DNA of 18,187 nucleotides, taken from positions 1 through 18,187 of the forward strand of contig CAXXVK010000034.1 of the NCBI GenBank assembly GCA_963676915.2, in the 5' to 3' direction. Numbering within the stretch: position 1 is the stretch's first letter; each line of letters starts with the position of its first letter. The notes beneath the pieces were generated by a model. That model was not told the DNA's origin and made no database searches. It saw only the letters and a program-made list of their open reading frames with translations. The translations under genes and the position numbers were made by a program. Of the stretch, positions 1-18,187 are shown one piece after another. The stretch comes from Myxococcota bacterium (lineage in GTDB: Bacteria > Myxococcota_A > SURF-8 > G963663525).

Positions 1-43
1 TTTTTCTTTGGCCTGGAAAATTCCATTAAAAATATGATTGGAC

Positions 44-71
44 TTGCCAAAAATGTTCAACTCCCTATAAT
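44..71 (+). promoter_or_regulatory. Putative sigma70-type promoter for the ZipA-like gene
   Basis: TTGCCA (44-49), 16-bp spacer, perfect TATAAT (66-71), in an AT-rich stretch upstream of the 163 start. Confidence 0.5.
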
Positions 72-162
72 AACAAGTGATATTTAACTATTTGCGTCCT
101 GTTTGCGGTGTCTGTGTGAAGGAGAACGTTCTTCGCGCTGACCGATGAATTGACGGGGGTCC

Positions 163-1320
163 GTGAGCGATATGGCAAACGTCGGAATGGATTCTTTCTT
201 GGTTCTAATTTCGATCGCTGTACTTCTAATTCTCGTTGTGGCGTATGTCGTGGCGAGGCACAACGCGAAAAAATCCAAGCAATTGGAGGAAGTTACGGAC
301 GATTCCTTTGTGGATGACAATCCTCGGTTCACCTCGGAAACGGTGATACAAGAAGAGAACTCCCAGGCATTGAAGTCCATGGGAAGCGAAGATGTTCGCG
401 AGATTCTAAGCGTAAACTTGAAAGCCTATCAAAAAGAAAACTCTACCGAATCGACGGATGAATATCTGCCCGACGAAAAAAGCGATTGGGTGGTGAGTTT
501 GGAGATTCGAAACGTTACGGAGATCGAACGGGAAGAAGTCCTGCGAATTTTCGATAGCGCCTGGCGCGAAGCCAATGGAACGCCGGAATTGTATGGAAAA
601 TCCGTTGAGACTGGAAAGTGGGCATTCCTGCTGGCGTCCGATGCCCCGGAAACGGTTTCCCAGGTACGATTTGCTTGGAAACTGTACCAGGATGAAGACC
701 AGGACCGCCCCAGCCTATGGACTCAAACCGATTTACGTTCGTTCCTCAATGCAACCAAAGTTGCTGGTGCGCAAATGGGGGATATCGTCATCGGTTCGAG
801 AACAACTCCCGAACAAGGTGGAGAACGTGCCGAATTTTTGAAAAACCTTGCCGAAGATTGCGATTGGACCGCCGGAATCGTTTTGAAAGCGGGAGAAGGA
901 AAAACCTTCCAAGGTAAAGATGTTTGGGACGTTATGATGAGTCTCGGTCTGCAATGGGGTGACATGGAAATTTTCCATTGGGTCAACGATAGCGGATTGG
1001 GAGACGACTCTTTCTTCAGCGTCTGGTCTTCGACCTCTCCCGGCTATTTTATTCGTGACCAGATCGAAGCCGGAGAGGTTCAGGTGGACGACCTCGTGTT
1101 CGGCTTCGCGATTCCTCGGTGCATCGATCCGGTACAAATCTACGATGCGATGCTCGAAGCCGCCCGCTATGCCAAAGAAAGGCTGGGGGGAGAGTTGCTG
1201 GATACCAACGGTGATACATTGCAGGATGAGGCTCTGAAAAAGGAAATCGAAGAAGCGGTTCGGCAGCTCGATGAATCCGGGTATCCTCCGGGCAGCGATG
1301 CATCTTTGTACGTTTTTTGA
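163..1320 (+). CDS. Membrane-anchored protein with a C-terminal ZipA FtsZ-binding-like domain
   Basis: N-terminal TM helix (FLVLISIAVLLILVVAYVV) followed by basic residues and an acidic linker. The C-terminal LGLQWGDMEIFH...FFSV...PGYF...FAIP...MLEAARYAKERLGGELLD resembles the ZipA_C pattern (GFIFGDMNIYH...LFSL...PGTF...MLQSAQHIADEVGGVVLD). The start could be GTG163, ATG172 or ATG187. Confidence 0.75.
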   Translation: MSDMANVGMDSFLVLISIAVLLILVVAYVVARHNAKKSKQLEEVTDDSFVDDNPRFTSETVIQEENSQALKSMGSEDVREILSVNLKAYQKENSTESTDEYLPDEKSDWVVSLEIRNVTEIEREEVLRIFDSAWREANGTPELYGKSVETGKWAFLLASDAPETVSQVRFAWKLYQDEDQDRPSLWTQTDLRSFLNATKVAGAQMGDIVIGSRTTPEQGGERAEFLKNLAEDCDWTAGIVLKAGEGKTFQGKDVWDVMMSLGLQWGDMEIFHWVNDSGLGDDSFFSVWSSTSPGYFIRDQIEAGEVQVDDLVFGFAIPRCIDPVQIYDAMLEAARYAKERLGGELLDTNGDTLQDEALKKEIEEAVRQLDESGYPPGSDASLYVF

Positions 1321-1432
1321 TATTTTTGCATCTTTCGAACATCTTTGTTTCGTTCGCGAATCATCATTCTGATCAAACATATCCTTTTTTGCGGCGAATC
1401 GAACGAAAACAAGCAAACGGGAGCGTTTACGA

Positions 1433-4400
1433 ATGACTTTTCGGAATTGGGTATGGATTCCTGTCCTGTTGGTATGTCTTGGAATGCCTGGATGGAGTCA
1501 GGCGGACGACTCCTTGCAACTCGAATCCATTCGGCAGGCGATTCAGCGGCAAGGTGCAACCTGGGAGGCGGCGGAGACGTCGTTTTCTCGACTGACACCC
1601 GCCGAGAGACTCCGGCACATGGGATGGAATCCTCCTGAAAATCTCAGGAAAAACAAACGGTTCGAACCGGCTTCGGTTTATCCTTTGCCTAGAAAGCTTG
1701 ACTGGCGCGATCATGGCGGCAACTGGGTCACTCCCGTTCAACAGCAGGGAGCGTGCGGAAGTTGCTGGGCTTTTGCGTCGATTGCCGCCATCGAGTCGGC
1801 CTTGCTGCTCAGTGAAGGCAAAACCTACGACGAATGGCCGATCGATCTCTCGGAAGGACAGGCGTTTGCCTGTGCCCCCGCTTCCGTGAGTTGCGAAACG
1901 GGAGGCAATGCAGAGTACACCTACAATATAGGGATGGACGACGGCATCACGGTAGAGGAATGCCTCGACTACGACAGCTATCTCGTGCTTGGCTCCAAAA
2001 ACGATATTGCCTGCGAATACGAATGTGACGACTGGCAGGATAGGGTCTATAAACTGCGTGGATACGCCTATGTCACAACGGGAGATTACCACTACCCCGA
2101 GGATATCGAGCGCGTCAAAGCGGCTTTGCAATATGGTCCCGTGGTGGCTGGTTTGGCGATTTTTTCCGACTTCAGCTACTACTCGGGCGGTATTTATCGA
2201 CACGTCTGGGGAGAATACGAGGCCGGACATCTGGTATTGCTCGTAGGATATGATAGCGACGAAGGATATTGGATTGCAAAAAACAGTTGGGGTGGATTCT
2301 GGGGAGAAGAAGGCGGTTATTTTCGTGTGGCTTTCGATGATGCGGCGACGAACATCATGCGTTGGGTGTCGATGCCTTTTGTCGAGGGCGACGAGCCGCC
2401 CGGTAGTTCCTGCAACAACCCCATAGAGCTCGATTTCGACGATGATGGCGTCGCCGAGCGCTTTTTCGATAGCGGACACACCTCTTTCGGTAGCGCTATC
2501 AACGGTTCCTGTGGCGGCTACGGCAAGCAAGTGGTGCTTCGTTTCGATGTCGACCAGGCTTCCGCTTTCACGGCTACGTTGGACGGCTCGGACGCCGTGC
2601 TGTACCTGCGTGAACAATGCGACGACGAACAAAGCGAGCTTGCCTGCGATAGCGGCAGCACGTCCTATCCCGGTATCGGGGATTGCTATATTACCGTCGA
2701 AAACCTCGATCCCGGCACGTATTTCCTGTTTGCCGATTCCAGCCACACGGACGCTGGCGAGTGGTTTCACCTGCAAGCGGAATTGCATCCCAAACGCGGA
2801 CTGCTGCACGTGGAGCCTTCGAGTGTAACGGTTTACGCCAAACAAGATCGTTCGATTTTGTGGTTCGATCCGGCTCAAGAACTTCTCTTATCCAATCTCG
2901 GAACGAAGACGATCGACTACGAAACGTCGGTGGAAGGGGAGGGCATTTCCCTGGAAGGTACCACCTCGGGGAGCCTCGATCCTGTCGTGTCCATCGAGGA
3001 CGGCTCCTCCGTTCTTCTTCAGGCTGCGGACCCGATTCAACCGGTCACGCCCGAGGTGATCGTGCGTTCCGAAGGCGTACCCGGAGCACCGGCCACGGTT
3101 GCGGTGGATGTCCGAACGTTTCCATATGGCATGGAATCTTTCCTCGAAAACCCGCAGCGGCTCCCTCGTCTAGGCAATTCACCGTACACGATGACATTGA
3201 CCAGCGAGGTGGAAGGCTCGGTGTACGATGTTTCGTTGTGTCTCAAGGTGCAAGGCGGAGAAATGGGTACTTTTTCCGCTACGTTGGAAACACCCGCCGG
3301 GCGGAAGCTCGAACTGTTCGAGAACAATCCCCGTGACCGCAGAGCGGTAGGCCCGATGATCTGTTTCGGCCCGGATAATCCTCCTTTCGAAGACCTTAAC
3401 GCCCTTGTGGGTGATGAAGCATTGGGAGATTGGACGTTTCATCTCAACTCGGACAACTGGGCCGAATTTGAGGGAGCGGCTTTGTTTTTCGCCACGATGC
3501 CGTGTGACGTTTCCCACTGCGACGACGGCAACGCCTGTACCGCAGATATCTGCCTGGAGGGCGAAGTCTGCGATTACCGCAACATGAAATTCGGTCTTCC
3601 GTGCGTAGACGATCTCTATTGCACGGTATACGAACACTGCGACGAGGGTCAGTGCGTGGGAGCCGAGCGGGAACCGACCTTCGATTTCCCGGATTGCGGT
3701 GTGCCCGACTGCAACGAAGAGGAACAAAAAGTCACTATCGAACCGATGGACGACCGTTGCGACGATGCCAACGTTTGCAACGGTGAAGAAACCTGCAATT
3801 TACTGTTGGGTTGCATGGCGGGTGAACCGCTCGAACTGGACGACGGAATCGACTGCACCAACGATGGTTGCGATGAAATCGACGGCGTATTTCACGAGCC
3901 GGACGACAGCCTTTGTCCCGAAGCTACGGATGAATGCCACGAGCCGTATTGTGACGCGCAAAAAGGGTGTTCCGTTTCATTCAAAGAGCAAGCGGCCTGC
4001 ACCATGACGACTGGCGCAGACGGCATTTGCGACGAGGACGCCTGTATCGCCATTCAGACCGGAAGCTTTTGCACGGATGCCGTTGTGCTCGAACCGGGAG
4101 AACATGGATTTTCTTTTTCCGAATTGAAGCAGTATGACACCGCCGGGTCCAAATGTGTGTCGGAAAACGAAACGCCTGGAAAACGCATGTATTTCCGGCC
4201 TTCTACAACTCCCGTTGACGTGACGCTTTCTTCGACCGGTGGAAAACTGCTGGCGCTTTCTTCCTGTAGCGGCGATTGCCTGGACCTCGTGACGAACGAC
4301 GATGCAGGCCAGACGCTACGATTCGATAATCCTGAGTCGGTATTGGCTGTTGTGAATATCGGGGATTCCGCAACCGAAAGTTTTACACTGACGATCCGAA

Positions 4401-4510
4401 AAATTTCCTCCTCCAGTGGTTGCCGTGCGGTTGGTAACTCCCAAGGCTGGATCGGCGTTTTTCTGATGCTTTGGCTTGTGGGATCTAGAAAACGTTTTGG
4501 GCTAAGGTAA
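1433..4510 (+). CDS. Secreted/surface C1A (papain-family) cysteine peptidase with accessory domains (P-domain-like, Cys-rich repeats) and a MYXO-CTERM-like tail
   Basis: Signal peptide. Catalytic motifs QGACGSCWAF (Cys), GHLVLLVGY (His) and YWIAKNSWG (Asn). A proprotein-convertase P-like segment (TLETPAG...LVGDEALGDWTF). Repeats CDDGNACTADIC, CVDDLYCTVYEHC, CDDANVCNGEETC and LDDGIDCTNDGC. C-terminus SSSSGC + hydrophobic helix + RKR. Confidence 0.9.
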   Translation: MTFRNWVWIPVLLVCLGMPGWSQADDSLQLESIRQAIQRQGATWEAAETSFSRLTPAERLRHMGWNPPENLRKNKRFEPASVYPLPRKLDWRDHGGNWVTPVQQQGACGSCWAFASIAAIESALLLSEGKTYDEWPIDLSEGQAFACAPASVSCETGGNAEYTYNIGMDDGITVEECLDYDSYLVLGSKNDIACEYECDDWQDRVYKLRGYAYVTTGDYHYPEDIERVKAALQYGPVVAGLAIFSDFSYYSGGIYRHVWGEYEAGHLVLLVGYDSDEGYWIAKNSWGGFWGEEGGYFRVAFDDAATNIMRWVSMPFVEGDEPPGSSCNNPIELDFDDDGVAERFFDSGHTSFGSAINGSCGGYGKQVVLRFDVDQASAFTATLDGSDAVLYLREQCDDEQSELACDSGSTSYPGIGDCYITVENLDPGTYFLFADSSHTDAGEWFHLQAELHPKRGLLHVEPSSVTVYAKQDRSILWFDPAQELLLSNLGTKTIDYETSVEGEGISLEGTTSGSLDPVVSIEDGSSVLLQAADPIQPVTPEVIVRSEGVPGAPATVAVDVRTFPYGMESFLENPQRLPRLGNSPYTMTLTSEVEGSVYDVSLCLKVQGGEMGTFSATLETPAGRKLELFENNPRDRRAVGPMICFGPDNPPFEDLNALVGDEALGDWTFHLNSDNWAEFEGAALFFATMPCDVSHCDDGNACTADICLEGEVCDYRNMKFGLPCVDDLYCTVYEHCDEGQCVGAEREPTFDFPDCGVPDCNEEEQKVTIEPMDDRCDDANVCNGEETCNLLLGCMAGEPLELDDGIDCTNDGCDEIDGVFHEPDDSLCPEATDECHEPYCDAQKGCSVSFKEQAACTMTTGADGICDEDACIAIQTGSFCTDAVVLEPGEHGFSFSELKQYDTAGSKCVSENETPGKRMYFRPSTTPVDVTLSSTGGKLLALSSCSGDCLDLVTNDDAGQTLRFDNPESVLAVVNIGDSATESFTLTIRKISSSSGCRAVGNSQGWIGVFLMLWLVGSRKRFGLR

Positions 4511-4523
4511 AAGAACTCGCCAA

Positions 4524-4566
4524 AAATTCTGGAGCGATAACGCTGGATTTCGTGTGGTGAGCAAGT
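4524..4566 (-). repeat. 43-bp diverged copy of internal comM sequence (matches 6847-6889)
   Basis: 39/43 identical to 6847-6889. All four differences fall at third codon positions, so both copies encode [14 protein letters not shown]. Confidence 0.9.
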
Positions 4567-4732
4567 TGTTCGACCTGTAACAATAATGTTTCCTAAAGCC
4601 CCCCTTATATTTCTCTTGACACGTTGTGAAATACTATGATCTCTTATCATCACACACTTTATGCTGGATCTGGAAGAGAAGGGTGAGTTTGATCCTTCCT
4701 GATACCACGGATATTATTGATAAGGAGGCATT

Positions 4733-5086
4733 ATGCAAGAAGTTGCCAGGAAGTCTGAAAATGAGAAATATTGCAGTGAATGTGGTGCAGTAATCTTAAA
4801 AAAAGCTGAAATATGTCCAAAGTGTGGAGTCAGACAAATGGCAATCCCTAACGGAATGGGAGGAGCCGTCGCAGATAACGGAAAAAGTCGTATCGCGGCG
4901 GCATTGCTTGCATTCTTCTTAGGAGGATTTGGGGTTCATAAATTCTACCTTGGCCAGGTCGGACTTGGTGTTGTTTACTTAATATTTTGCTGGACATTCA
5001 TACCAGCTATTATTGCATTCATAGACTTTATAATACTATTGACAATGAGTGATGATACTTTCAATCAAAAATATGGAAGCGCCTAA
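4733..5086 (+). CDS. TM2 (NINE)-domain membrane protein with N-terminal zinc ribbon
   Basis: Strong RBS TAAGGAGG (4721-4728). CSEC...CPKC zinc ribbon. TM2 signature KSRIAAALLAFFLGGFGVHKFYLG followed by a second TM helix. Confidence 0.9.
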   Translation: MQEVARKSENEKYCSECGAVILKKAEICPKCGVRQMAIPNGMGGAVADNGKSRIAAALLAFFLGGFGVHKFYLGQVGLGVVYLIFCWTFIPAIIAFIDFIILLTMSDDTFNQKYGSA

Positions 5087-5205
5087 TAATTCTATTTTTA
5101 CAAAGAACAGCAAGGTTGGGTAAGAAGTCCTGTAGCATGAACGTTGGGTTCTGGTGAAGAATCATTCAACCTAGTCCCACTTTCCAGCCCAGACAGCCAT
5201 CCCAT

Positions 5206-5235
5206 AAAAAACAGGTGCCTACGAAAACTCGTAAG
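5206..5235 (-). terminator. Possible intrinsic terminator downstream of the tRNA fragment
   Basis: On the minus strand, CUUACGA-GUUU-UCGUAGG forms a 7-bp stem (one G-U pair), with U6 six nucleotides later. Confidence 0.3.
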
Positions 5236-5244
5236 TGCTTGATT
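5232..5244 (-). promoter_or_regulatory. IHF-binding consensus next to the tRNA-derived att core
   Basis: Minus strand AATCAAGCACTTA matches WATCAANNNNTTR exactly, 4 bp beyond the CCA end. A weaker same-orientation match (TTTCAAGCCATTT) lies at 5357-5369. Confidence 0.55.
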
Positions 5245-5248
5245 TTAT

Positions 5249-5308
5249 TGGTGCCGAAGGGGGGACTCGAACCCCCACACCCAAATACGGGCACTAGACC
5301 CTGAATCT
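5249..5308 (-). tRNA. 3' fragment (60 nt) of tRNA-Leu(CAG); truncated and att-like, not a complete gene
   Basis: Minus strand reads AGA-TTCAGGG-TCTAG (anticodon CAG), long variable arm GCCC-GTATTT-GGGT, T-arm GGGGG-TTCGAGT-CCCCC, acceptor 3' strand CTTCGGC-A-CCA. The upstream sequence has no D-arm and no GCCGAAG 5' acceptor strand. Confidence 0.85.
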
Positions 5309-5463
5309 TTATAGAGGATATATTGGAGATTCAATACGAATCCCAATGTTTTCAGGAAATGGCTTGAAATTTCACTATATTTTCATCTTTGGGGAGCTTT
5401 TTATATATGACGTTGCCAATATCTATTTCCCCATGGGAAGAGATTCGTCGTGCAGCTTGATGC

Positions 5464-5588
5464 ACCATGGAGCGGGTGATCTTTGATGGGTGGCACAGAA
5501 TTTCGAGCACTTTTTCTTGAATTCCGGCAACTCGTTCAGGAAAAGCACGTCGTTATTAGCAAGGCTGATTTCTCCCAACTTCGGGATC
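5464..5588 (-). pseudogene. comM: Degenerate internal comM fragment (matches 6978-7118, Walker B region)
   Basis: 5464-5480 is identical to 6978-6994 (17/17). A 14-bp deletion follows. 5481-5520 vs 7009-7050 is 37/42 with two 1-bp gaps, and 5521-5588 vs 7051-7118 is 59/68. It encodes IPKLGEISLANNDVLFLNELPEFKK versus [25 protein letters not shown]. Confidence 0.9.
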
Positions 5589-5611
5589 ATTGGTGAATAT
5601 CCAGCTCGAAC

Positions 5612-6430
5612 TCACCCGAAATTCCTTGGAAAATCCGTGGTTTCCACGACACCTCGTTCCTTAATCGACAGTCCAACGGTTTTTCGTCCCGTGCCGAAGC
5701 CACGTTCTGCTTTTACGATGGTGAAGGTGTCGGTTATCGGCTGCATTCCCAGTCGAAAACGTCCCCCGCGTCCGCCACGTTGTGAGCCGTCCGGACGTGT
5801 TGACAGCGAAACGAGCGCTGTTCCTGTTCTTCGGGCACAATCGAGCAATGGAGAAATCGCCGCTGACCTGTCGTTAGAGGTGTTCAGCGATGCAAGGGGA
5901 GTGGCGTAGCGGGAATCGGTCAATACATTTGGTGCGAAAACTACGGCATCCACGCCACCCGAGGTGAGAAGCCGTTCCAGGGACGCCGCGAGGGTTTCGG
6001 GATGGGAAGCACGAAGCATAACGGTGCGTCGGGCGTCGAGTCCATGCAACGATAGCAAACGGCTTGGAAATGCGCTTTCGGGATCGATCCAAGCCACGGT
6101 AGCGCCTTCCTGCTGACTGTGCCGTATCAGGCTCATCACGAAAACGGCCCGACCGCTGCCTTCGGTTCCGATGATTTCCAACAGGTCGCCACGCGGCAGA
6201 CCATCCAGTCCCAACATGCGAAAAACATTGGGGAATCCAGCGGGGATCTGACAAGACAAAGGCGGAGTGCCTTGAGGGGATTCTTCTTTACGCTCCAATT
6301 CGTTCAGGGAACGTTGAAGATCCTGCATGGCCATCGTGAGGGCCATGCGAAAATCGTCGGCGACTCGTTGAAGCACGGTGCGTCCGGGGGATTGAGTGAG
6401 AATGTCCGATTTCTGATTTCGTGCAATCAT
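5612..6430 (-). CDS. RecA-superfamily paralogue (ImuA-like), probably ATPase-deficient and lacking the RecA C-terminal domain
   Basis: Collinear with the RecA core: LGLDGLPRGDLLEIIGTEGSGRA (RecA GGLPxGRIVEIYGPESSGKT), QQEGATVAWIDPE (QREGKTCAFIDAE), LLTSGGVDAVVFAP (LARSGAVDVIVVDS). 272 aa; starts 21 bp after the comM stop. Confidence 0.8.
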   Translation of the reverse strand: MIARNQKSDILTQSPGRTVLQRVADDFRMALTMAMQDLQRSLNELERKEESPQGTPPLSCQIPAGFPNVFRMLGLDGLPRGDLLEIIGTEGSGRAVFVMSLIRHSQQEGATVAWIDPESAFPSRLLSLHGLDARRTVMLRASHPETLAASLERLLTSGGVDAVVFAPNVLTDSRYATPLASLNTSNDRSAAISPLLDCARRTGTALVSLSTRPDGSQRGGRGGRFRLGMQPITDTFTIVKAERGFGTGRKTVGLSIKERGVVETTDFPRNFG

Positions 6431-6451
6431 GTCGTTCTCTTCAAAAATGAA

Positions 6452-7978
6452 TTAGCTCATGGTTCGGTCCAGACTGCGGTATTGGATCGCTTCCGACAGG
6501 TGGGCCGTCTGGATCGACTCGCTTGCGTCGAGATCCGCAATGGTTCGAGCCACTTTCAGAATCCGGTCGTAGGCTCGTGCGCTCATGCCGAGGCGATCCA
6601 CGACCATTTCGAGCAGCCGACCACCCTCGTCGTCTACTTTGCAGTCGCGCCGAAGCAGGGGCGGAGTCATCTGAGCGTTGCAGAAAAGATGATCGGAGCC
6701 GAGTCGTTCGAGTTGCAAGCGACGCGCAGCCACCACGCGATCCCGAATCGTTTCGGAGGTTTCTCCCCGGCGTTTGTCGCTCAAGTCACGATAGCGCACG
6801 GCGGGAACTTCCACATGCAGGTCGATGCGATCCATCAACGGACCGGAAATTCTGGAGCGATAGCGCTGGATTTCGTGCGGGGAGCAGGTGCATTCATGAT
6901 TGGGGTCTCCAAGAAAGCCACACGGACAAGGATTCATTGCGGCAACAAGCATGATGCGAGACGGGTAGGTGACCGATACCATGGAGCGGGTGATGGTCAC
7001 CTGCCGGTCTTCGATGGGTTGGCGCAGAACTTCGAGCACATTTTTCTTGAATTCAGGTAACTCGTCCAGGAAAAGCACGCCGTTATGGGCAAGGCTGATT
7101 TCTCCAGGCTTCGGGATCGATCCGCCCCCGATCAGTCCCACATCCGAAATCGTGTGGTGCGGCGCTCGAAACGGCCTTTGTGTCATGATGCCCTGGCCGT
7201 TTTTCAGTAATCCCGCAACGGAATAAATCTTGGTGGTTTGCAAAGCTTCTTCGAAACTGGGAGGTGGAAGTACCCCGGCGATTCTGCGTGCAACCATCGT
7301 TTTGCCCGACCCGGGCGGACCTACGAGAATCAAATTGTGTCCACCGGCAGCAGCGACCTCCAGAGCGCGCTTGACGTGCTCCTGTCCTTTGACATCCGAC
7401 AAGCAGGGCCAACCGCCGGGCGGTGGTATGTCGTCTTTGTGGGGAAGTTCCACCGGTGGGATAGGATTTTGACCCAGCAGGAAGCCCACGGCCTGATCCA
7501 CAGTTCGTACGGGAATAACCTCGATACCTTCGACGACGGCGGCTTCCTCGACGTTTTCTTCCGGTAGCAGGATGCCGTCCATTCCGGCATCCCGACACGC
7601 GACGGCGATGGACAGCGCGCCTCGAACGGGACGGATCGTGCCGTCCAAGGCGAGTTCTCCCGAGACCATGTAGTGATTGAGTTGGGGAAAGTCCAGGTTT
7701 CCCGACGATGCCAAAATACCGAGTGCAATGGGCAGATCGAAGGCTGCGCCTTCTTTGCGGATATCGGCAGGCGCGAGGTTGATGGTAATACGTCGTGGTG
7801 GAATGGCGAAGCCGGTATTGCGTAATGCCGACCGTACGCGCTCTTTCGATTCTCGGACCGCACCATCGGGAAGGCCGACGATCTGCACGCCGGGCAATCC
7901 CAAAGAAAGGTCCACCTCGACTCGAACCTGATAGGCATCGATTCCCAGTACCGCACCGGATTGAACACAGGACAACAT
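6452..7978 (-). CDS. comM: ComM / YifB Mg-chelatase-like AAA+ ATPase
   Basis: Start reassigned to ATG 7978 (RBS AAGGAGG at 7984-7990), giving 508 aa. Motifs: [35 protein letters not shown], Walker [69 protein letters not shown]. Confidence 0.95.
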
Positions 7979-8045
7979 GGGCACCTCCTTGGCTGCGTAA
8001 TTACAGCAAGGCTTGTGCCAATCGGTGAAAGTCCCGATAGCCCGC

Positions 8046-8205
8046 ATATTTCATGAGGATCGTCACGAGACGCCGAAAACCGAAGATATTTCATGAAGTT
8101 GGAGCGATTTTCACCCGCAGGCATACTGAACAGTCTGTCGAGGATGAAAATCGGGAAACAAGTGAAAGATCAAGGGGTTTCAAGTCGCAGTAGATTCTTC
8201 ATGAA
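8046..8205. promoter_or_regulatory. Repeated TTCATGA(A) motifs upstream of comM (candidate operator sites)
   Basis: ATATTTCATGA at 8046-8056 and 8086-8096 (exactly 40 bp apart) and TTCATGAA at 8198-8205. Confidence 0.35.
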
Positions 8206-8247
8206 TTATGTGGGCTAGATCAAGTTGATTCAAATGGGTCTAAATGG

Positions 8248-8272
8248 CTACCGTTCGGTTTTCAAACGGTAG
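8248..8272 (-). terminator. Hairpin downstream of the VWA gene (possible terminator or stabiliser)
   Basis: Minus strand CUACCGUUUG-AAAAC-CGAACGGUAG gives a 10-bp stem with one U-G pair. There is no clear U-tract. Confidence 0.35.
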
Positions 8273-8336
8273 AGCGTACGGATGTTGGACGGTGGATTGA
8301 AAACTGCACGTTGTGAATGTGCAAAGAACCTGAAGA

Positions 8337-10646
8337 CTACGGAAGCCTTCGCCGTTTGCGCCACCACCACTCACTTGCGGCAAGCAGTACGATCAATCCC
8401 AGCATGAAGGCGTTGTCCCAGATCGGAATGTCCTGTTTCGCACCGATTCTTTCGTTATGGCGGCCTTCAAAATCTATCGGATCGCTTAAACGGTCGGGAA
8501 GAGGTTCGAAGTGCCCTCCCGATGCATCGGCGAGGCGCTCCAATTGCCGGAAATCCACTGAAACTTCATCCAATTCCCGACTTTTACCTTCGATGAAAAC
8601 CATTGCTTCGCCGTGTTGCTCGCTGCCGTCTTCCAGACGATGAACGAGACGGATTTCGAGCAATCCTTCTTTTTGCGGAGCGGGTAGCGTGGTGCGGATG
8701 ATGCCGTCTTCGTCGCTGGTTTTCTCTTCTTCAAACACGATGTCGGATTCCCCCTGGAACCGTGCTTCGATTTTCGCTGTGGCTCCGGATTTGGGCTGGA
8801 ATCCCGTGTCCGTGATCCGAAAAGAGACATTGACATTTTCGCCGGGTTGATAGCTGTCCTTGGCGGGAGTGGCTTGGATGTGCGTCAGTTCGGGATCTTT
8901 GATCAACCAGCGCAGGGCATTGTTCCAGAAGGTGCGGTAGTGTTCGGCCCGTTTTCCCTGACCGACGGACTGAAAATTCCAAACCCAGGTGGAATCGACG
9001 GCCAACGCCAGTACACGCCCTTTCTCCGGTTCTCGCAACGCAATCACCGGAGGAGATCCGAACGCTCCGCTCAAGCGAGGATGCACCGCCAAAACCACAG
9101 CGTCGGGACGAGGTTTCAGTCCGAGGTTGATTCCCATCAGATTCGGCAATGAATTCCATACTTTGCGATTGGCGTCCAGGTCTTTGACCAGCCGTGTGAC
9201 GGGATGTTGCTCTCCTTTGGGTGTCAGACGAGCAGGAAACGGTTCCAAGCTCGCCGCGTTGCCGCCTTCCTCGATCGTAAACGGTAAAATCGCCTCGATA
9301 GCGGTACGTTGATAGCCGCCCAATCCGTAAGAAACATCTCCACCGATGACCAGCAGCGAGCCGCCTTGTTCGACGTAGCGGCGAATGTTGGGTAGGTACT
9401 GGGACATCCGGTAGCCGACGTAGGTAAAATTCTGGAAAATCACCAGGTCGAAGGTGTGCAGTTGTTTGTCGAACAGTTCTTCGGTTGGGAAGGGAATCAA
9501 CGAAAGCTCGTGATCCTGACTCATTACGGAATCTTCAGGCGTACGCAAGATGAAAAAGCTGATGAGATCCACGCTGGGATTTCGTTTCAGATGGCGTCGC
9601 AGGAACATTTCATCGTAATCGGGATGTCCGCAGACATGAAGAATGCGGATTTTGTCGCGGATCACCTGAACGATGAATTTTCTGCTGTCGTTCTCGGGGA
9701 TGGCGTCTTCGGGAGGCGTATCGATGTGGGCTTCATATACGAATTGTCCGACTTTCTCCGGTGCGAACGTGAAACGGGCCACTTGCCGTTCCCCCTCGGC
9801 GACATGCACGGTTTTCGCTTGGATGGGCGAACCGTTCAAAGATAACGTCGCAGTGACATCCCTTGCAGGGTAGCCGGTATTGCCGATTTCTATTTCGACC
9901 GCCATTTCGTTGTGAACGAAGGCGAATCCGTCGTATCGAACGTCACGGATCGCAAGATCGGCCAGACCTTTTTCGACACCGACTCCGTAGGCCACAATGG
10001 GCAAACGTCGCTTTTTCAGCAAGGTCAATAGGGCTTCTTCATCGGTTTCAGCATGTTCCGGTGGGTTGTCCACACCGTCCGAGATGACGACGATACCGGC
10101 CAGTTCCTCGGAAGGATAGCCTTCCATCGTACTTTGGATGGAGGAAAGCAGAGTTGTGTAGTCGTCTCTGGAGTTCAGAGGCTCGGACAACGTATCGAGG
10201 CTGACGCTTGACGTTTTGGCTCCGAAAGTCATCGGGTGTAAGTGATGTCGTTCCGCCAATTCAGAGAACGCTTCACGACTATTGGAGAAAAACTCGGTCA
10301 TTTGTGCCGAGCGACTTGGCTTACCGGGAGCGGAGGGAAGGTTCATCGAGCGTGAACGATCGGCCAGAACGACGACATGAGATTTAAATTTGAGGCGTTT
10401 CTGCAATTGAGCGGCTGGTTCGAGCCATAGCAGCACCAACAGCACGATCAATAAAATGCGCAGGATAAACAACGACCAGCGGATTTTTTTGACCTGAATC
10501 CGGGAAAGATTGCTCCAGGAAAGCCACACGGCGATAAGAATTCCAACGCCGAAAAGCATCCATTCCCAAGGTCGAGGATGGTGCAGGAATACCCATTCCC
10601 AGTAATTGTAATCTCCCAAAGCGGAAGGATCGAACAGGTTGCCCAC
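8337..10646 (-). CDS. Membrane protein with VWA (MIDAS) and class-I glutamine amidotransferase-like (DUF1355-type) domains
   Basis: Two N-terminal TM helices; MIDAS VLADRSRS...T...VISDG; Ig-like segment; FDLVIFQN...IRRYVEQGGSLLVIGGDVSYGLGGYQRTAIEAILP; GRVLALAVDSTWVW; C-terminal TM ending SEWWWRKRRRL. RBS GAGGAGG before the GTG. Confidence 0.85.
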   Translation of the reverse strand: MGNLFDPSALGDYNYWEWVFLHHPRPWEWMLFGVGILIAVWLSWSNLSRIQVKKIRWSLFILRILLIVLLVLLWLEPAAQLQKRLKFKSHVVVLADRSRSMNLPSAPGKPSRSAQMTEFFSNSREAFSELAERHHLHPMTFGAKTSSVSLDTLSEPLNSRDDYTTLLSSIQSTMEGYPSEELAGIVVISDGVDNPPEHAETDEEALLTLLKKRRLPIVAYGVGVEKGLADLAIRDVRYDGFAFVHNEMAVEIEIGNTGYPARDVTATLSLNGSPIQAKTVHVAEGERQVARFTFAPEKVGQFVYEAHIDTPPEDAIPENDSRKFIVQVIRDKIRILHVCGHPDYDEMFLRRHLKRNPSVDLISFFILRTPEDSVMSQDHELSLIPFPTEELFDKQLHTFDLVIFQNFTYVGYRMSQYLPNIRRYVEQGGSLLVIGGDVSYGLGGYQRTAIEAILPFTIEEGGNAASLEPFPARLTPKGEQHPVTRLVKDLDANRKVWNSLPNLMGINLGLKPRPDAVVLAVHPRLSGAFGSPPVIALREPEKGRVLALAVDSTWVWNFQSVGQGKRAEHYRTFWNNALRWLIKDPELTHIQATPAKDSYQPGENVNVSFRITDTGFQPKSGATAKIEARFQGESDIVFEEEKTSDEDGIIRTTLPAPQKEGLLEIRLVHRLEDGSEQHGEAMVFIEGKSRELDEVSVDFRQLERLADASGGHFEPLPDRLSDPIDFEGRHNERIGAKQDIPIWDNAFMLGLIVLLAASEWWWRKRRRLP

Positions 10647-10649
10647 GGA

Positions 10650-11471
10650 TCAATCCTCCTCGCCGACCGGTTGCGAACCCCTGAAAGGAGAACGACGCCG
10701 CTTGAGAATGAAGGGAATATGCACCTGATCGGATTTGTAATTGGTGCACAGAGCATACATGATGACGTTGACTCCGAAGCGGAACGCCAATTCCCGTTGA
10801 TGATCGCCACCGGGATAGACCGGAAGGCTCCAGTTGCCGAATTGATCCCTCATCCAAGCGCCACCGAGGTCGTTTCGGGAATAAATGACCGGAGTCCGTT
10901 CGTCGATGTGGATTCCTTCTACGTAGGGAAGCCGCTCGCGTCGTCCTGGGCGACCGTCGATCAAATAGAACGACTTGAACAACGTATGGTCGTGATCGAT
11001 ACGTTCGAAGGGGTTTTTCGGGAAAATACGCCCGAATTCTCTGCGAATCGCTGTATCGAAGCCATCGTCTTCACCGAAATCGTCGATGAATAAAAAACCT
11101 CCCAAACGCAAAAAACGGTGCAATTTCAGGATGTGGGCTTCGCTGAAGGGTGCGAAGTCGGTGTTTCCGTTCAAATACAACACCGGATAATAGAATAAAT
11201 CTTCGTGATCCAATGTGATTTCGGGGCTGTCCAAGTTCGCTTCGATGCTTGTTCGGCGAAGCAGTTCCCACGCAAGACGGCTTTGAGCCCCTCTACGTTC
11301 GGTGCTTGCTCCCAGGTACATCAGTGAGGGGAATGAAAATTTGGAGCGCACACCAAAACCCCAAGCCGGTTTGGAAACAAAGGGGAACGCCAATCCCAAC
11401 AGAGGTAGTCCGGTGAGAAAACGACGCCTGGAGAAGCGATTTCCTTCGGATGTCGGCTTGTTGGGAGTCAT
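10650..11471 (-). CDS. DUF4159-family protein with Tat-like signal
   Basis: Start reassigned to ATG 11471, followed by SRRRFL + hydrophobic stretch + AWG. DLFYYPVLYLNG, LHRFLRLGGFLFIDD, IYSRNDLGGAW and AFRFGVNVIMYALCTNYKSDQVH are typical of DUF4159. Confidence 0.85.
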   Translation of the reverse strand: MTPNKPTSEGNRFSRRRFLTGLPLLGLAFPFVSKPAWGFGVRSKFSFPSLMYLGASTERRGAQSRLAWELLRRTSIEANLDSPEITLDHEDLFYYPVLYLNGNTDFAPFSEAHILKLHRFLRLGGFLFIDDFGEDDGFDTAIRREFGRIFPKNPFERIDHDHTLFKSFYLIDGRPGRRERLPYVEGIHIDERTPVIYSRNDLGGAWMRDQFGNWSLPVYPGGDHQRELAFRFGVNVIMYALCTNYKSDQVHIPFILKRRRSPFRGSQPVGEED

Positions 11472-11547
11472 GAAGTGTTCGATTCTATTGCAAAAGGGAG
11501 AACGTCTTTGAGAGACGACATGTTGATAAAAGAATCCTCTTTTGAGG

Positions 11548-12307
11548 TCAAGGAGTTTCGTTTGTCTTCGCTGGGGGGGCACCTGTCGATTCTGTTTTTC
11601 CACGAATCTTTTTCAACGTTCGTACCGCGTTGAGTTGTATTCCCCTGTTGAATGTGATTTTCGGTGTTGCCCAGGGACCGTCAAGGCGAAGCTCGTGCAT
11701 TGGTTTCGAAGACGGATCGAACGCTTCGACCGGCCAGCCTTTGACAAGAAGAAGTGTGTAATTTTCGTGGTGTTTCCAGGGTTTTAGATCATTTTGAACC
11801 TGTTTGAACGCCCAAAACAACGCTTTTCGCTGGGCTGTTTCACTGGCTTCCGGGTCCAACCATAAGTCGATTTCGACAACGGCTTCCTTTTCGTCTTCCC
11901 GTTGGCGGACATCGATGGTCTTGCAGGTTTGCTCGGGGGGGAGGTCTTTCCATTCCAGGTTGCGTTTGATGGTCTGGCTTTTTTTCGTCCCGGCGGATTG
12001 AATAATCGGCTTGCGTTGCCCTTTCAACGTTCGATTCAAAAACGAGAGTCGGCTGTTTTCAGACAGGGCATCGAAACGTTTTTTTTTGCGTTTCGTCGGC
12101 GAATGCCAGCCGGTATCCACGGATGTCAGAATAACTTGTGGGTTGTTCTGGGGTTCCGGCAACGGGGCGACCGCTGAGCGGACAGACTTTGTTTCCTAGT
12201 GTCTTGACCGGGACACTGGTTTCGGGAGTTGCTTTTTCCGAACAAGAGAAAACGCATAGAACAGCGAAAAGTAACAAAACCGGAAAAGCGATATGGGTGA
12301 ATTTCAT
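11548..12307 (-). CDS. Putative lipoprotein with YHS/TRASH-like motif, split by a +1 frameshift in an A9 tract
   Basis: ATG 12307 gives MKFTHIAFPVLLLFAVLCVFSC (lipobox-like), then NKVCPLSGRPV...RGYRLAFADE. Removing one T from the T9 run at 12079-12087 joins it in frame to the 11548-12162 ORF (...DETQKKRFDALSEN...), giving 252 aa. Confidence 0.6.
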
Positions 12308-12433
12308 CCTATTGTCCTTTTTTCTCGTCACTTTTCGTTACTATCGCGAAAAATGGTGAAAAAATCCACCCCCCAACAATGAAATGATCGACTTTTCAGG
12401 CTTTCTTTTCAAAATTGTCGAATCGAAAGGAGT

Positions 12434-15298
12434 TTACTTTTCTTTAGAGACGGTTTTGTTGACCTGTTCAACCAGTTCTTGAGAGGAAAAAGGTTTTTGA
12501 AGAAAACCGGATATGGTTTTGCCTTGGAAACGTTCCAATACAATGTTTCGGTTGTAGCCGCTGGTCAAAAGAATGGGAATCTTGCACCCAAGGTGTCGCA
12601 ATTCCTCAAGAGCTTGTTCACCTCCCATTTTCGGCATGGTTAGGTCTAGAATGATTAAATCGATGTTTTCCTTGTGTTTCTGGTATTTGGCAATAGCTTC
12701 GAAGCCGTTCGATGCGGTAAATATCTCCATGCCGTTTCGTGAAAGAGTTCTTTCCATCATGCGTCGTACGACGGATTCGTCATCGGCGATAAGAACGGTA
12801 TGCGTCGTGACGGTCGAGTATTTTGATTCCGGTATTTCCAACTCTTTGCTGCCGGATTCCATTACGGGGAAAAACGCTGTGAAAACAGAACCTTTTCCGA
12901 GACTGCTGTCCACGGTGATCGTACCGCTGTGACCCCTGATGATACCGATAACCGTGGCTAAGCCCAAACCTCGTCCGGTAAACTTCGTCGAGAAAAAGGG
13001 ATCGAAAATTCGCGAAAGGGTTGCCGGGTCCATGCCTGCCCCGGAATCTGAAACTTTGACAAAGGCATAGGAGCCTTCAGGAAGATCCTCGTCGATCAAT
13101 GTCGCGGATAAAAAGTCCCGGTCACAGTGTTTTTCACCTGTTTCAATGATAATTTCGCCGTTTCGTCTGCCAACGGCTTCTACTGCATTGGTTACGAGGT
13201 TTAGCACCAATTGTTGAAATTGTACGGAATCGGCTTCGATGAACGTGTTCATTTCATGAAGGCGATACGACAACGTGGTGCCCAGGTTCATTGTGGCGTT
13301 GATGATGTGCCGCATGCTGTTGATGGTTTCAGTTACATGCAGCGGAGCTTTGATAACGCGCCCTTTTCCGGAATACGCCAGCATCTGCATGGCCAGTTCC
13401 GAAGCTTGAAACGCAGAATGTTCTACGTCTTTAAGGAAATCGTAAATTGGTGATTCCGGGTTGAGATCCATCAGGGCGAGACTGACATTACCCATGATTC
13501 CGGTTAGTAGGTTATTGAAGTCGTGGGCAACGCCTCCGGCCATATGTCGGAGACTTTCGAGTTTTTGGTTTTCCTGAATTCGGAAATCCTTTTGTTTGAG
13601 AAGAGGGTCCGTTTTTCGACGGGACGAGATGTTTCTGGATACACCCAGCAAGCCAATGTTTTCGCCATCTTCGTTTTGTAAAAGTGTAATGATGGTTTCG
13701 GTTGTGACGTGGTTTCCGTTTTTGTGAATGAAATCCAATTCCATTCTCAAAGAGTTGTCCTGCTTTTCATTCAGGTTGGATGAAACCAGTGCTTCAGGAA
13801 TCCATTTCATTGCTTTTTCAAGGCTGGATTCGGTCATTCTGTCGTGGAGTTGAAGACCGATGGCTTCTTCCGGCTTGAATCCACAGAGAGTCTCGACCGA
13901 TGGACTGACGTACGTCAGTGAAAACGTCATGTCGGTCATCCAGATCATGTCCGTGATGTTATCCGCAATAAAGCGGTATTTTTGTTCGCTCTGGTCCATG
14001 TCGTGCTCCACCCCAAGGGTTGTTCCATTTGTTCCTGTGGAAAACAAAACACCCGAAGGTTCGCCATGTTTGTCGAAGACGGGGGATCGAGTTACGCTCA
14101 ACTGCCGTTTTTCCAAGTCACAGGTCATTTCTTCTTCATCTTGCAATGCGGTTCGCTGGTAGATTGCTTTAAGGTCTTTTTCCTGGTGGCGTTGAGCTTC
14201 TTCCTCGTCGAACAGATCGAAATCCGTCTTGCCTAAAATGTCAGTTTCGTCAAGATTCACGAGACGACAAAAAGCTGGATTGGCGATTTCGTATTGCAAC
14301 TCTTTGTTTTTGTAAGCAAAAGGAAGAGGCGTTGATAAAAGCCATGCTTCGAATAATTCATGATGAGGATGGCGCGAAGACAACGTTTTGTCAGCGGAAC
14401 TTCCGGTTTCGGTGTAACAAACCACGATGTGGGTTTCATCCGCTTTTTCGGCGATGCATCGAAGGGTTTTTCCTATCAACGGAGAATATTCTTCAAAGCG
14501 ATAGGGCTCGGAAAGGTCAAGAGCCATAAAAAAATGAGCGAACCACGAAGGATGAGCGACACGGGATACCAATTGACCGAGATAGGTTTGTTCGTCCAGT
14601 TCCGTAATTTGTTTCGAGCCTTTATTCGTGCCGACCAGGCGGAAGTCCAAAGGTTTCTTTCGGCGATCGTATAGAATTTCGAACATGGCGAACCCCAAAA
14701 GACCGTCTTCCGCCATTTTTTCCATATACGGTTTCAACAATCGCGATACTTTACGGTTGTCTATCTCGATTCTTGGAGCAATTGGTTCTTCGAATGGCTG
14801 CGGCGAATGAGGGGCAGGATAGTTTGAAACGATGGAATCTCTTAGTATTTCCAGTGTTTTACGATGGAACTGACCGATTAGTTCGAGGTTTTCATCTTTT
14901 AATTCCGGAAGGGAGGCATTCCATTCTTCCTCGAAAATTTCTTGGCCGAAAAGAGCTGCACCTTTTTCGTTGGAGGTCGTATTGTCTCGGTCCCACTGAA
15001 GAGTGAAAGGTCCGATGACAATGGTTCCTTCATTAGGTCCATCCAGGGGGACAGGCAAGTGAAGATCACGCAAGCCGTTGCTACGTTGAAACGCCTGAAA
15101 ACCACTAAGATTGATACGTTTAAAAGGTAACTGAAGATGAGCCTGAGCATGAAGAACATTCAGGCCGGAAGCGCTGACAAGTTCCCCATTCGTTCCAAGC
15201 AAAAGTACTGGAACGTTGATCATGGCCGAAAACCGCTTACAATACCGTTGCAGGGTTTCCAAAACAGAAGGTTCGGATTGTGGAACCGGTAGTTTCAT
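12434..15298 (-). CDS. Cytoplasmic hybrid sensor histidine kinase (PocR-like, PAS x2-3, HisKA, HATPase, REC)
   Basis: H-box AGGVAHDFNNLL, N-box QLVLNLVTNAVEA, G1 DSGAGM, F-box IFDPFFSTK, G2 GRGLGL. Receiver VLIADDE...ILDLTMP...TSGY...QKPF. PAS signatures ANPAFCRL...ILGKTDFDLF and YVSPSVETLCGF. Start at ATG 15298 or TTG 15325. Confidence 0.92.
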   Translation of the reverse strand: MKLPVPQSEPSVLETLQRYCKRFSAMINVPVLLLGTNGELVSASGLNVLHAQAHLQLPFKRINLSGFQAFQRSNGLRDLHLPVPLDGPNEGTIVIGPFTLQWDRDNTTSNEKGAALFGQEIFEEEWNASLPELKDENLELIGQFHRKTLEILRDSIVSNYPAPHSPQPFEEPIAPRIEIDNRKVSRLLKPYMEKMAEDGLLGFAMFEILYDRRKKPLDFRLVGTNKGSKQITELDEQTYLGQLVSRVAHPSWFAHFFMALDLSEPYRFEEYSPLIGKTLRCIAEKADETHIVVCYTETGSSADKTLSSRHPHHELFEAWLLSTPLPFAYKNKELQYEIANPAFCRLVNLDETDILGKTDFDLFDEEEAQRHQEKDLKAIYQRTALQDEEEMTCDLEKRQLSVTRSPVFDKHGEPSGVLFSTGTNGTTLGVEHDMDQSEQKYRFIADNITDMIWMTDMTFSLTYVSPSVETLCGFKPEEAIGLQLHDRMTESSLEKAMKWIPEALVSSNLNEKQDNSLRMELDFIHKNGNHVTTETIITLLQNEDGENIGLLGVSRNISSRRKTDPLLKQKDFRIQENQKLESLRHMAGGVAHDFNNLLTGIMGNVSLALMDLNPESPIYDFLKDVEHSAFQASELAMQMLAYSGKGRVIKAPLHVTETINSMRHIINATMNLGTTLSYRLHEMNTFIEADSVQFQQLVLNLVTNAVEAVGRRNGEIIIETGEKHCDRDFLSATLIDEDLPEGSYAFVKVSDSGAGMDPATLSRIFDPFFSTKFTGRGLGLATVIGIIRGHSGTITVDSSLGKGSVFTAFFPVMESGSKELEIPESKYSTVTTHTVLIADDESVVRRMMERTLSRNGMEIFTASNGFEAIAKYQKHKENIDLIILDLTMPKMGGEQALEELRHLGCKIPILLTSGYNRNIVLERFQGKTISGFLQKPFSSQELVEQVNKTVSKEK

Positions 15299-15566
15299 GA
15301 TCCTACAGTCCAAACAAGTATTCAAACAAGGTTCGAGAATCTTTCCTCAGTAAAGAGGAAAAGTGGATATCCAAATACTGAATGGATTACATTGTATTAC
15401 ACCATTTGCTTTTTTGCAACTAATGATGGCTAATCGCACGTTGGTCACTTGCATTATTAAGGCATCTTTATATAACCGAGAGCTGTACAATTTGCAACTG
15501 CTTTGCGATGAGAATATGCTGATTTTCAGGAAAACGAAAACCAACAGGTACAAGTGGAACTAAAGT

Positions 15567-16385
15567 ATGAATATCGTTAGACAATGGAAGTATGCAGATA
15601 TTGAGGCTGTTGAATTGGGGTTTAGTCCTATCGGGTCGCCCCTAATGACAGTGTGTTTGTACCGATACCGTGGAACTCTGATAGATTCGGGACAAAGTAG
15701 GATGCGTTCGACCGTCCTTGAATGGATCAGGACAAACCCTGTAAACACAATCTTACTGACCCATCATCATGAAGATCATTCGGGAAACGCCGCAGAGATT
15801 GCACGACGATACGGAGCGGAAATCCTTGCGCATCCTCTCACATTGGAAAAAATGTCCGGTCCCAACCGGATTCTTCCCTACCAGAAGTGGGTTTGGGGGC
15901 CGTCGAGTCCCATAAGTGGCTATGCTTTTGCCGATGAAATCGAAACCGATGGTCTGTGTTTGATTCCAATTCATACGCCGGGACACAGCAAGGATCACTG
16001 CGTTTTTCTCGTGCCCGACAAAGGCTGGTTGTTTTCCGGAGATTTATACTTGGGTGATCGAATCAAATACTTTCGTTCGGACGAATGCATTGGAGAGCAG
16101 ATCGCTTCGATCAGGGACGTCCTGACCTTCGATTTCGATGTATTGCTATGTTCGCATCATCCTCGTTTGAAAAACGGAAAACGTCATTTGAAACGCAAAT
16201 TGCAGTTTTTGGAAGATTTTTGCGGGAATGTGCATCGTTTGAAAGGAGAAGGGAAACCTTTGCGGGTGGTTGCTCGTGAACTTGAAATCAAAGAAACTTG
16301 GCTGGTGCGAGGGATTACATTAGGAAACGTCAGTATGCGTAACATGATTGTTTCAGCGTGGGAAACCTGTGGGGATTTCAAGTAA
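15567..16385 (+). CDS. MBL-fold metallo-hydrolase
   Basis: LIDSG, THHHEDHSG (HxHxDH), HTPGHS, LFSGD, LCSHH. Confidence 0.9.
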   Translation: MNIVRQWKYADIEAVELGFSPIGSPLMTVCLYRYRGTLIDSGQSRMRSTVLEWIRTNPVNTILLTHHHEDHSGNAAEIARRYGAEILAHPLTLEKMSGPNRILPYQKWVWGPSSPISGYAFADEIETDGLCLIPIHTPGHSKDHCVFLVPDKGWLFSGDLYLGDRIKYFRSDECIGEQIASIRDVLTFDFDVLLCSHHPRLKNGKRHLKRKLQFLEDFCGNVHRLKGEGKPLRVVARELEIKETWLVRGITLGNVSMRNMIVSAWETCGDFK

Positions 16386-16556
16386 ATTCCTCAATTTTAT
16401 TACATTTATACTGAACACTTTGTAGGATTGCGACATGTGTCTCCTTCAGGTATGGACCCATAAATGAATTTGCCACCATATTAAGAAAATGTTAAAGAGG
16501 GGATGTGGTCTTTTTCAGTGAAAACTGTTGCCTTTCCCATTGCAAGCGAGGTGAAC

Positions 16557-17883: not shown

Positions 17884-17908
17884 AAACTTAACCCTGCCAG
17901 AGAAACAT

Positions 17909-17946
17909 CCCTCACCCTTGAATGATTCCCATTCCAAGGGCGAGGG
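17909..17946. terminator. GC-rich inverted repeat between convergent genes (terminator or REP-like)
   Basis: CCCTCACCCTTG-AAT...ATTCCAAGGGCGAGGG, a stem of about 15 bp with one mismatch and one bulge. Confidence 0.5.
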
Positions 17947-17951
17947 GCTGG

Positions 17952-18187
17952 CTATTTGTCTGCGGCAAGCACTTCGTGGGTGCCTTTGCCGTTCATCTCG
18001 AAGGTCTTGTCTCCAAGTTTGATCTTGAATTCATAGGTGTTTTCCGCACGGAAGAAAATGGGGTTGCCGGCAATGGACTTGACGACTGACCGCATCACGC
18101 TTTCCATCTGATCCAGCATCACGAAGCGTTGCATGTAATTGACCAGTTTCCATTCGCCTGCAACAGCGTTTTTGTCATCGAAGGCTT
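17952..18187 (-). CDS. Hypothetical protein, C-terminal part only (runs off the window)
   Basis: The frame is open from the window edge (AFDDKNAVAGEWKLVNYMQRF...GTHEVLAADK-stop). No family recognised. Confidence 0.6.
   Translation of the reverse strand, partial: AFDDKNAVAGEWKLVNYMQRFVMLDQMESVMRSVVKSIAGNPIFFRAENTYEFKIKLGDKTFEMNGKGTHEVLAADK

Follow-up and report, generated by a model that had tools for sequence, protein, structure and literature searches.

The window considered here, i.e., the whole stretch of DNA analysed, comprises 18,187 nucleotides (nt) from a Myxococcota bacterium (GenBank assembly GCA_963676915.2, contig CAXXVK010000034.1, positions 1 to 18,187) and includes an intact comM gene followed, on the same strand, by a gene for a small protein with the core fold of RecA. 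The explanation that best accounts for the data overall, with a probability of roughly 0.45, is that this RecA-like gene encodes an ImuA-like, non-catalytic accessory protein of RecA fold, which occupies a position directly behind comM (the comM slot) that is conserved in the phylum and which modulates RecA filaments or joints. One component of this explanation is considerably firmer than the whole, namely that the protein is likely to be a non-catalytic accessory of RecA/ImuA type. The two genes and the spacer between them are as follows:

6452 to 7978, minus strand: comM, intact, coding for a Mg-chelatase-like AAA+ helicase of the YifB family of 508 amino acids (aa); TIGR00368, Pfam ChlI, Mg_chelatase and Mg_chelatase_C, ribosome-binding site present
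6431 to 6451, minus strand: spacer of 21 nt with a purine-rich stretch (GAAGAG) resembling a ribosome-binding site and no terminator-like site, as read from the sequence
5612 to 6430, minus strand: gene of the putative RecA-fold, ImuA-like pseudo-ATPase, 272 aa, its ATG 21 nt past the comM stop; hidden Markov models (HMMs), alignments and structural model

In the following, G000 denotes the genome of the window, G001 a relative of the same genus and other labels of this form genomes of the same phylum; counts at the order level refer to 10 genomes and those at the phylum level to 41 sampled genomes from 24 families. The open reading frame (ORF) of comM spans 6452–8047, the real start being the ATG at 7978 with AAGGAGG just before it, and ComM reaches 644 bits against TIGR00368 (cut-off 362). 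A purine-rich stretch before the start of the RecA-like gene is common to the aligned spacers of G000, G001 and G003, the lengths of which differ, and co-transcription of the gene with comM is probable. The stretch 6276–6586 is also covered, at about 92% identity, by a contig from a second study; the contigs of three sequencing runs yielded no usable within-species variation.

Alignment with the normal RecA of the same genome (gene on contig C10, 453 bits) reveals the extent to which the catalytic apparatus has been altered. Walker A reads GTEGSGRAV in the window protein and GPESSGKTT in RecA (Lys to Arg, Thr to Ala), the P-loop GSGR corresponding to residues 91–94 and its Arg being kept in the G001 orthologue and in a metagenomic relative, P0005. 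After the Walker B strand VDAVVF comes Ala-Pro in place of the Asp-Ser of RecA, while the catalytic Glu is retained (IDPES vs. IDAEH). Loop L2 and the strand preceding it are reduced to about seven residues, after which RGGRGGRF corresponds to TGGNALKF of RecA, and the C-terminal domain of RecA is missing. The original prediction, made from the letters of the window, had described a catalytically degenerate RecA paralogue 21 bp behind comM with precisely this anatomy, and had observed that neither imuB nor dnaE2 follows; all of this was borne out, since no imuB or dnaE2 occurs in the window (downstream are comM scars, a TM2 gene and the end of a protease gene) and the protein is, to judge from its sequence, very probably not an ATPase. 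The claim that it has the N-terminal polymerisation helix of RecA stood in part. Positions 35–172 of the family profile align to RecA residues 9–145, so that the helix at residues 19–47 is homologous to that of RecA, whereas the strand motif FGKGxxMxLG that comes next in RecA is missing and residues 45–59 are modelled with low confidence. RecA K72R, a laboratory mutant that binds ATP but barely hydrolyses it, carries the same Lys-to-Arg change in Walker A; the window protein, unlike K72R, has in addition lost the adjacent Thr and the Asp of Walker B, so that it is doubtful whether it binds nucleotide at all.

An AlphaFold2 model built from seven sequences (mean predicted local distance difference test, pLDDT, 78.4; predicted template modelling score 0.71; core blocks near 90) consists of the long helix 19–47, a linker at 45–59 with pLDDT below 50 and a RecA core at 60–264, residue 264 ending the core sheet. 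The strand 162–165 stops short of Ala166, beyond which no acidic residue occurs until D172, where a helix begins. The top Foldseek matches of the model are all bacterial RecA proteins (E about 3e-13, template modelling score 0.55–0.61), and the VIA fold search, which works independently of Foldseek, returned RecA first (3cmv_A, Z 19.9, root-mean-square deviation 2.8 over 191 residues), followed by Rad51, UvsX, DMC1, Rad51 paralogues (Z 17.4 for 8faz_X and 16.9 for 8gja_A), KaiC and RadA. On this predicted model, then, the RecA/Rad51 core fold is confirmed.

Set against the established families, the protein described in the original prediction as a paralogue of RecA falls below the NCBIfam cut-offs for both RecA (TIGR02012, 44.0 bits, cut-off 325.3) and ImuA (NF033429, 39.9 bits, cut-off 150), and leans toward ImuA when profiles made within the phylum are compared (71.7 bits with the ImuA-like and 50.0 with the RecA profile). 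The Pfam RecA family (PF00154) is matched with 43.4 bits (cut-off 27) at residues 68–165 only, equivalent to profile positions 39–136 of 262, and NF058630 (ImuA' of the Rv3395c type) gave no match at E up to 1. NF033429 is a weak discriminator here, with scores of 36.8–57 for the cassette-linked ImuA-like proteins of G012 and G016 and the unlinked one of G027, and of 44.9–57 for true RecA. Five of the six family members that were scored favour the phylum ImuA-like profile; hhalign gave equal scores, with 159 aligned columns for the ImuA-like set and 109 for RecA, and the nearest clusters in the ESM Atlas, at 0.95, are proteins of about 250 aa annotated RecA_N and MT3502_N.

The resemblance to ImuA lies in the RecA fold, a length of about 250–290 aa, the lack of the C-terminal domain and of L2, and the degenerate Walker motifs found also in ImuA1 and ImuA2, which are without Walker motifs according to the accessible parts of published surveys (PMC12926913, PMC6511836). 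Cassette-linked ImuA-like genes of the same phylum often have the same Arg in the P-loop: dnaE2 or imuB-like genes have a short RecA-like gene as neighbour in G012, G016, G023, G024, G034 and G037 (less clearly in G032), and GSGRT occurs in 5 of 11 aligned short RecA-like genes outside the family (seven cassette-linked, three unlinked, one comM-linked). Those five also share with the window protein the Trp of AW.D and an Arg replacing the Gln of SQP. The differences from ImuA are that the window gene stands behind comM and not beside imuB or dnaE2, that it does not strictly co-occur with them, and that Ala-Pro follows the Walker B strand. Whether homologues normally belong to imuA-imuB-dnaE2 cassettes, which the original prediction had taken as decisive against a tie to comM, received a mixed answer: remote relatives do lie in such cassettes, near relatives do not.

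Phylogenetic placement relied on a tree of 38 rows, in which all 26 full-length RecAs are split (support 98/97) from the window family together with the ImuA-like rows, the branches of the family being long. Uniting the family and the comM-linked RecAs in one clade was not rejected by an approximately unbiased (AU) test (p 0.266). A quick tree of 74 rows fell 26 log-likelihood units short of a constrained one and was thus suboptimal; its placement was not used. As these profiles and motifs suggest, the window protein is ImuA-like in form, which does not imply membership in a mutasome, and two candidate origins present themselves: decay in situ of a comM-linked recA, or an ImuA-like gene in the same slot.

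The family to which the protein belongs is small and divergent. Its first profile, made from the window protein and the G001 orthologue, was searched with HMMER against 1.84 billion representatives and gave 3944 matches at E≤0.001, only two of them at E≤1e-30: the cluster to which the G001 orthologue belongs (269 aa, 53% identical) and the metagenomic P0005 (271 aa, 31–33% identity), which retains the length and GSGR but has Asp in place of the catalytic Glu. P0005 and P0154 are located on short contigs (995 and 2292 nt). The remaining matches cover the RecA core only, except for P0006 (97 aa, encoded on a contig of 26 kb), which matches the N-terminus. Apart from a few substitutions it is nearly identical to the window protein as far as about residue 62, beyond which the reading frame is lost; this points either to a frameshift in the copy of a close strain or to an error of assembly. 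A word-based protein search found just four proteins at E≤0.001 among 2583 candidates, and a search with a three-member alignment confirmed none of 83 pattern matches in genome contigs and none of 269 in metagenome contigs.

With a wider profile, to which the weak second RecA-like hits of genomes of the same order had been added, full-length matches to the family were obtained in eight of the ten genomes of the order, including two that had not contributed to the profile, G004 with 112 bits and G008 with 49 bits; it did not find the family in G002 (95% complete) or G006 (86% complete). The ORFs have 246–272 codons at 19–53% identity and are intact in seven of the eight genomes, the match in G009 having one in-frame TAA. 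The P-loop is lost altogether in G003 and in the members of family f4, and the Pro after the Walker B strand is invariant in all seven aligned members, conservation being concentrated in the core elements. Compared with the G001 orthologue, the proportion of non-synonymous differences (pN) is 0.336 and that of synonymous ones (pS) 0.702, with a ratio of about 0.22 that is only rough because pS is close to saturation (0.064 for the 3' part of comM, 0.032 for RecA); the non-synonymous divergence (dN) is 4.6 times that of the 3' part of comM and 14 times that of RecA. The RecA-like gene is thus fast-evolving and under relaxed purifying selection, and the neutral decay that the original prediction had named as fatal to its proposal is not what is seen. 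It is no lone oddity and probably not a decaying recA.

The linkage to comM was surveyed by relating the places at which the window protein and ComM have matches in the 41 genomes and then extracting the ORFs, the distance being measured from the end of the aligned comM match to the start of the RecA-domain match. In 18 of the 41 genomes and 11 of the 24 families, comM is followed on its own strand, after 16–271 nt, by a gene of the RecA family; this count is a lower bound, the contig ending at comM in G012 and G015. Thirteen of these slot genes code for full-length RecAs (333–379 aa, P-loop of the GPESSGKTT type, 463–546 bits with a local RecA profile), and most of the genomes concerned also have a separate recA; the slot gene of G036 is cut by the contig end. 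The window gene shares with these comM-linked RecA paralogues the slot, the strand and the short spacer, as well as the fold, the N-terminal helix and the core up to Walker B; it differs in lacking the Lys-Thr of the P-loop, the Walker B Asp, L2, the N-terminal strand motif and the C-terminal domain. Two slot copies depart from the full-length type in other ways. That of G013 (L059 2062–2961; TIGR02012 53 bits) has lost the P-loop and the C-terminal domain and kept the RecA motif GN..F..V.RL, and that of G033 (L053 2535–3485), which nests among the comM-linked RecAs in the tree and is separated from comM by a run of 100 N, keeps Lys-Thr and has a tail rich in Ala, Pro and Glu in place of the C-terminal domain. 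As read from their sequences, they are independent degenerate forms in two other families.

At the order level the family member is linked to comM in three of the eight genomes, the spacer measuring 21 nt in G000, 32 nt in G001 when counted to the called ATG and, as estimated from coordinates, about 40 nt in G003. The comM gene of G001 is in three collinear pieces (aa 1–229, 224–352 and 347–507) with roughly 37 kb and 125 kb of inserted DNA between them, and the last piece is the one that the orthologue follows; that of G003 is cut at aa 347–354, with the family member behind the 3' piece. The idea of a conserved comM linkage, advanced in the original prediction, accordingly holds for G001, G003 and the slot across the phylum and is not supported by the other five members within the order. 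Its notion of a module of comM with a degenerate paralogue needs amending in the same way: the slot holds a complete RecA in most genomes, and degeneration has occurred independently in G013 and G033. A literature search (supplements excluded) on comM linked to imuA or to a recA paralogue found nothing on this gene pair.

The role proposed for the protein builds on three published precedents. ImuA of Myxococcus xanthus binds RecA1, inhibits it and blocks filament extension through the polymerisation site of the core, as stated in the accessible part of a preprint (bioRxiv 10.1101/2020.12.14.422803); ImuB and UmuC bind ImuA and RecA through the RecA N-terminal (RecA-NT) motif, as the available portion of another report has it (PMC6511836); and the recruitment of ComM is presented as an open question, its partners as poorly documented and RecA on double-stranded DNA as a proposed landing pad in the parts at hand of a structural paper from 2024 (PMC11612176). 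Because of these precedents an accessory role on RecA filaments or joints is favoured. The RecA-like protein would be devoid of polymerisation and strand exchange of its own; its intact core surface would accept a motif of the RecA N-terminal type, i.e., the free N-terminal arm at the end of a RecA filament, and the protein may thereby modulate RecA filaments or joints, which ComM would then branch-migrate. That it acts in the recombination pathway of RecA and ComM is a tentative proposal with slightly less than an even chance, and docking through an interface of the RecA-NT type is the more doubtful part.

Several observations weigh against this explanation. Within the order, five of the eight members are not adjacent to comM (G004, G005, G007 and G009, where the gene is near neither comM nor imuB, and G008, whose contigs are too short to tell); frames were read over about 2.8–3.7 kb downstream of comM in G002, G004–G007, G009 and G020, none of them RecA-like, non-adjacency elsewhere being taken from coordinates. 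No conserved neighbours of the family member were found in G005, G007 and G009. The unlinked members and that of G003 lack the P-loop and are only 19–24% identical, so their function, as far as the alignments go, may differ or drift. Since the gene is intact in G001 and G003 while comM is interrupted, it cannot strictly depend for its function on an uninterrupted comM in cis, and adjacency alone does not show contact between ComM and its presumed partner. No LexA box or other regulatory signal common to the two genes was found, and the possible frameshift in P0006 also counts on this side.

Among the alternatives, the one that retains most support assigns the protein to a split mutasome: as the ImuA subunit it would bind the RecA-NT motif of a Y-family polymerase (PolY) encoded elsewhere in the genome and serve DnaE2-dependent translesion synthesis, its position behind comM being incidental. 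Contig C6 of G000 (L009 5301–11061) does carry lexA, a DUF72 gene, PolY and a DnaE2-like polymerase in a row, with no imuA of its own, and the PolY ends in a RecA-NT-like motif (DRFGTDAVRMG); family and cassette are found together in 6 of the 10 genomes of the order. The ImuA-like features of the protein (profile scores, alignment signatures, Atlas clusters) agree with such an arrangement, and the accessible part of the preprint (bioRxiv 10.1101/2020.12.14.422803) records cases in which imuA, imuB and dnaE2 are split up. The pieces do not travel together consistently, however. G003 (single contig, 93% complete) has the gene behind comM and no DnaE2 or PolY that could be found with the queries used, G008 (79% complete) has the family only, and the cassette alone is present in G002 and, as a fragment, in G006. 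The PolY is PolIV-like, with 420 aa and no ImuB-C domain, no SOS box was found, and operons of lexA, PolY and dnaE2 reported in genomes without imuA are thought to use RecA, as far as the accessible texts go (PMC6511836, PMC12926913). We regard a split mutasome as unlikely.

Some further observations concern this cassette and its regulation. Between G000 and the f4 genomes G004 and G005 the identity is 90% for DnaE2 and only 69% for ComM, and because of this difference the cassette may move horizontally. No description of a DUF72 gene in this position was found in the accessible portions of the literature. The delta-proteobacterial SOS box, as given in the available part of bioRxiv 10.1101/2020.12.14.422803, has a single match in the window, with two mismatches, at chance level and far from the two genes. 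It is not the box of G000, because none occurs before lexA on contig C6. The true recA of G000 (L001, contig C10) has a CTGT-N8-ACAG palindrome upstream (about 1400–1425), which by its form we take to be a LexA box of the E. coli type; this box is absent from the window. The same recA is followed by an ORF of 401 aa (L001 2556–3761), the printed sequence of which resembles a PilT-type ATPase.

About as unlikely as the split mutasome, in our estimate, is a bolder version of the favoured explanation in which the slot gene codes, throughout the phylum, for a dedicated RecA-type partner of ComM. In the order of G000 this partner would have become a purely structural adaptor with a RecA core that recognises filament ends or D-loops and recruits or assembles the otherwise monomeric ComM, a putative bacterial counterpart of the Rad51 paralogues. 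Because catalytic motifs and the C-terminal domain have been lost in at least three lineages (G000/G001/G003, G013 and G033), the partner may be of value for its interfaces rather than for strand exchange. The eukaryotic Rad51 paralogue complexes (BCDX2, RAD51C-XRCC3, Shu) are likewise accessory factors of filaments with a RecA/Rad51 core, some of them without ATPase activity; the window protein has no kinship with them beyond the superfamily and the analogy would be one of role only. In transformation of Bacillus subtilis and Streptococcus pneumoniae a protein of RecA type recruits or loads a branch-migration helicase, according to the accessible parts of two papers (PMC11612176, PMC6755099); that helicase is RadA/Sms, not ComM, and its partner is an active RecA. 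The conserved pair of comM and a RecA-family gene across the phylum is a concrete candidate for the question of ComM recruitment, and an ImuA-like protein existing without a mutasome bears on how ImuA arose from RecA.

Less probable again is an inhibitor of RecA that poisons or caps filaments, limiting recombination with incoming or repeated DNA in the manner of M. xanthus ImuA. The architecture is the same as that of ImuA, for which inhibition of RecA1 is described in the available text (bioRxiv 10.1101/2020.12.14.422803), and the N-terminal strand motif needed for filament extension is missing while the core is kept; on the other side, the present data do not separate inhibition from stimulation, and a slot that usually holds an apparently active RecA is not suggestive of an anti-recombination role. 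Least probable of all is a functionless relic, a comM-linked second recA on its way to loss: the high dN, the progressive loss of motifs across the order, the possibly frameshifted P0006, the in-frame TAA of G009 and the clade with comM-linked RecAs left standing by the AU test would fit it, but pN is half of a saturated pS, seven of eight ORFs are free of stops in spite of their divergence, the metagenomic relative keeps its length and GSGR, and conservation is concentrated in the core.

The remaining features of the window lie beyond the RecA-like gene:

5480 to 5588, minus strand: decayed comM fragment, codons 287–324, 87% nt identity in comparison with the intact gene
about 5250 to 5285, minus strand: piece resembling the 3' end of a tRNA, between the comM scars; no whole tRNA found
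4733 to 5086, plus strand: TM2/zinc-ribbon gene, between the comM scars
4524 to 4566, minus strand: second decayed comM fragment, codons 364–378, 91% nt identity in comparison with the intact gene
1433 to 4510, plus strand: putative secreted papain-like cysteine protease (recognised by eye), 1025 aa, with long Cys-rich repeats and a C-terminal tail of Gly-Cys, hydrophobic and basic residues

The protease gave no NCBIfam match at E up to 1e-4. The two comM fragments (window 4519–5600) flank about 950 bp of low-GC DNA behind the RecA-like gene and look like the scar of an island-bearing copy of comM, because they straddle the comM codons at which islands have inserted in relatives. Large insertions in comM were seen at recurrent sites: at codons ~224–229, the stretch coding for Walker A, in G001 and G007 (the pieces of G009 being on separate contigs), at codons ~347–354 in G001 and G003 and at ~319–324 in G017 (contig C36). 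The gene is an integration hot spot in the order; the pieces of split comM genes overlap by 5–8 codons, and the end of an insert in G001 carries GmrSD-like and DnaB-like genes.

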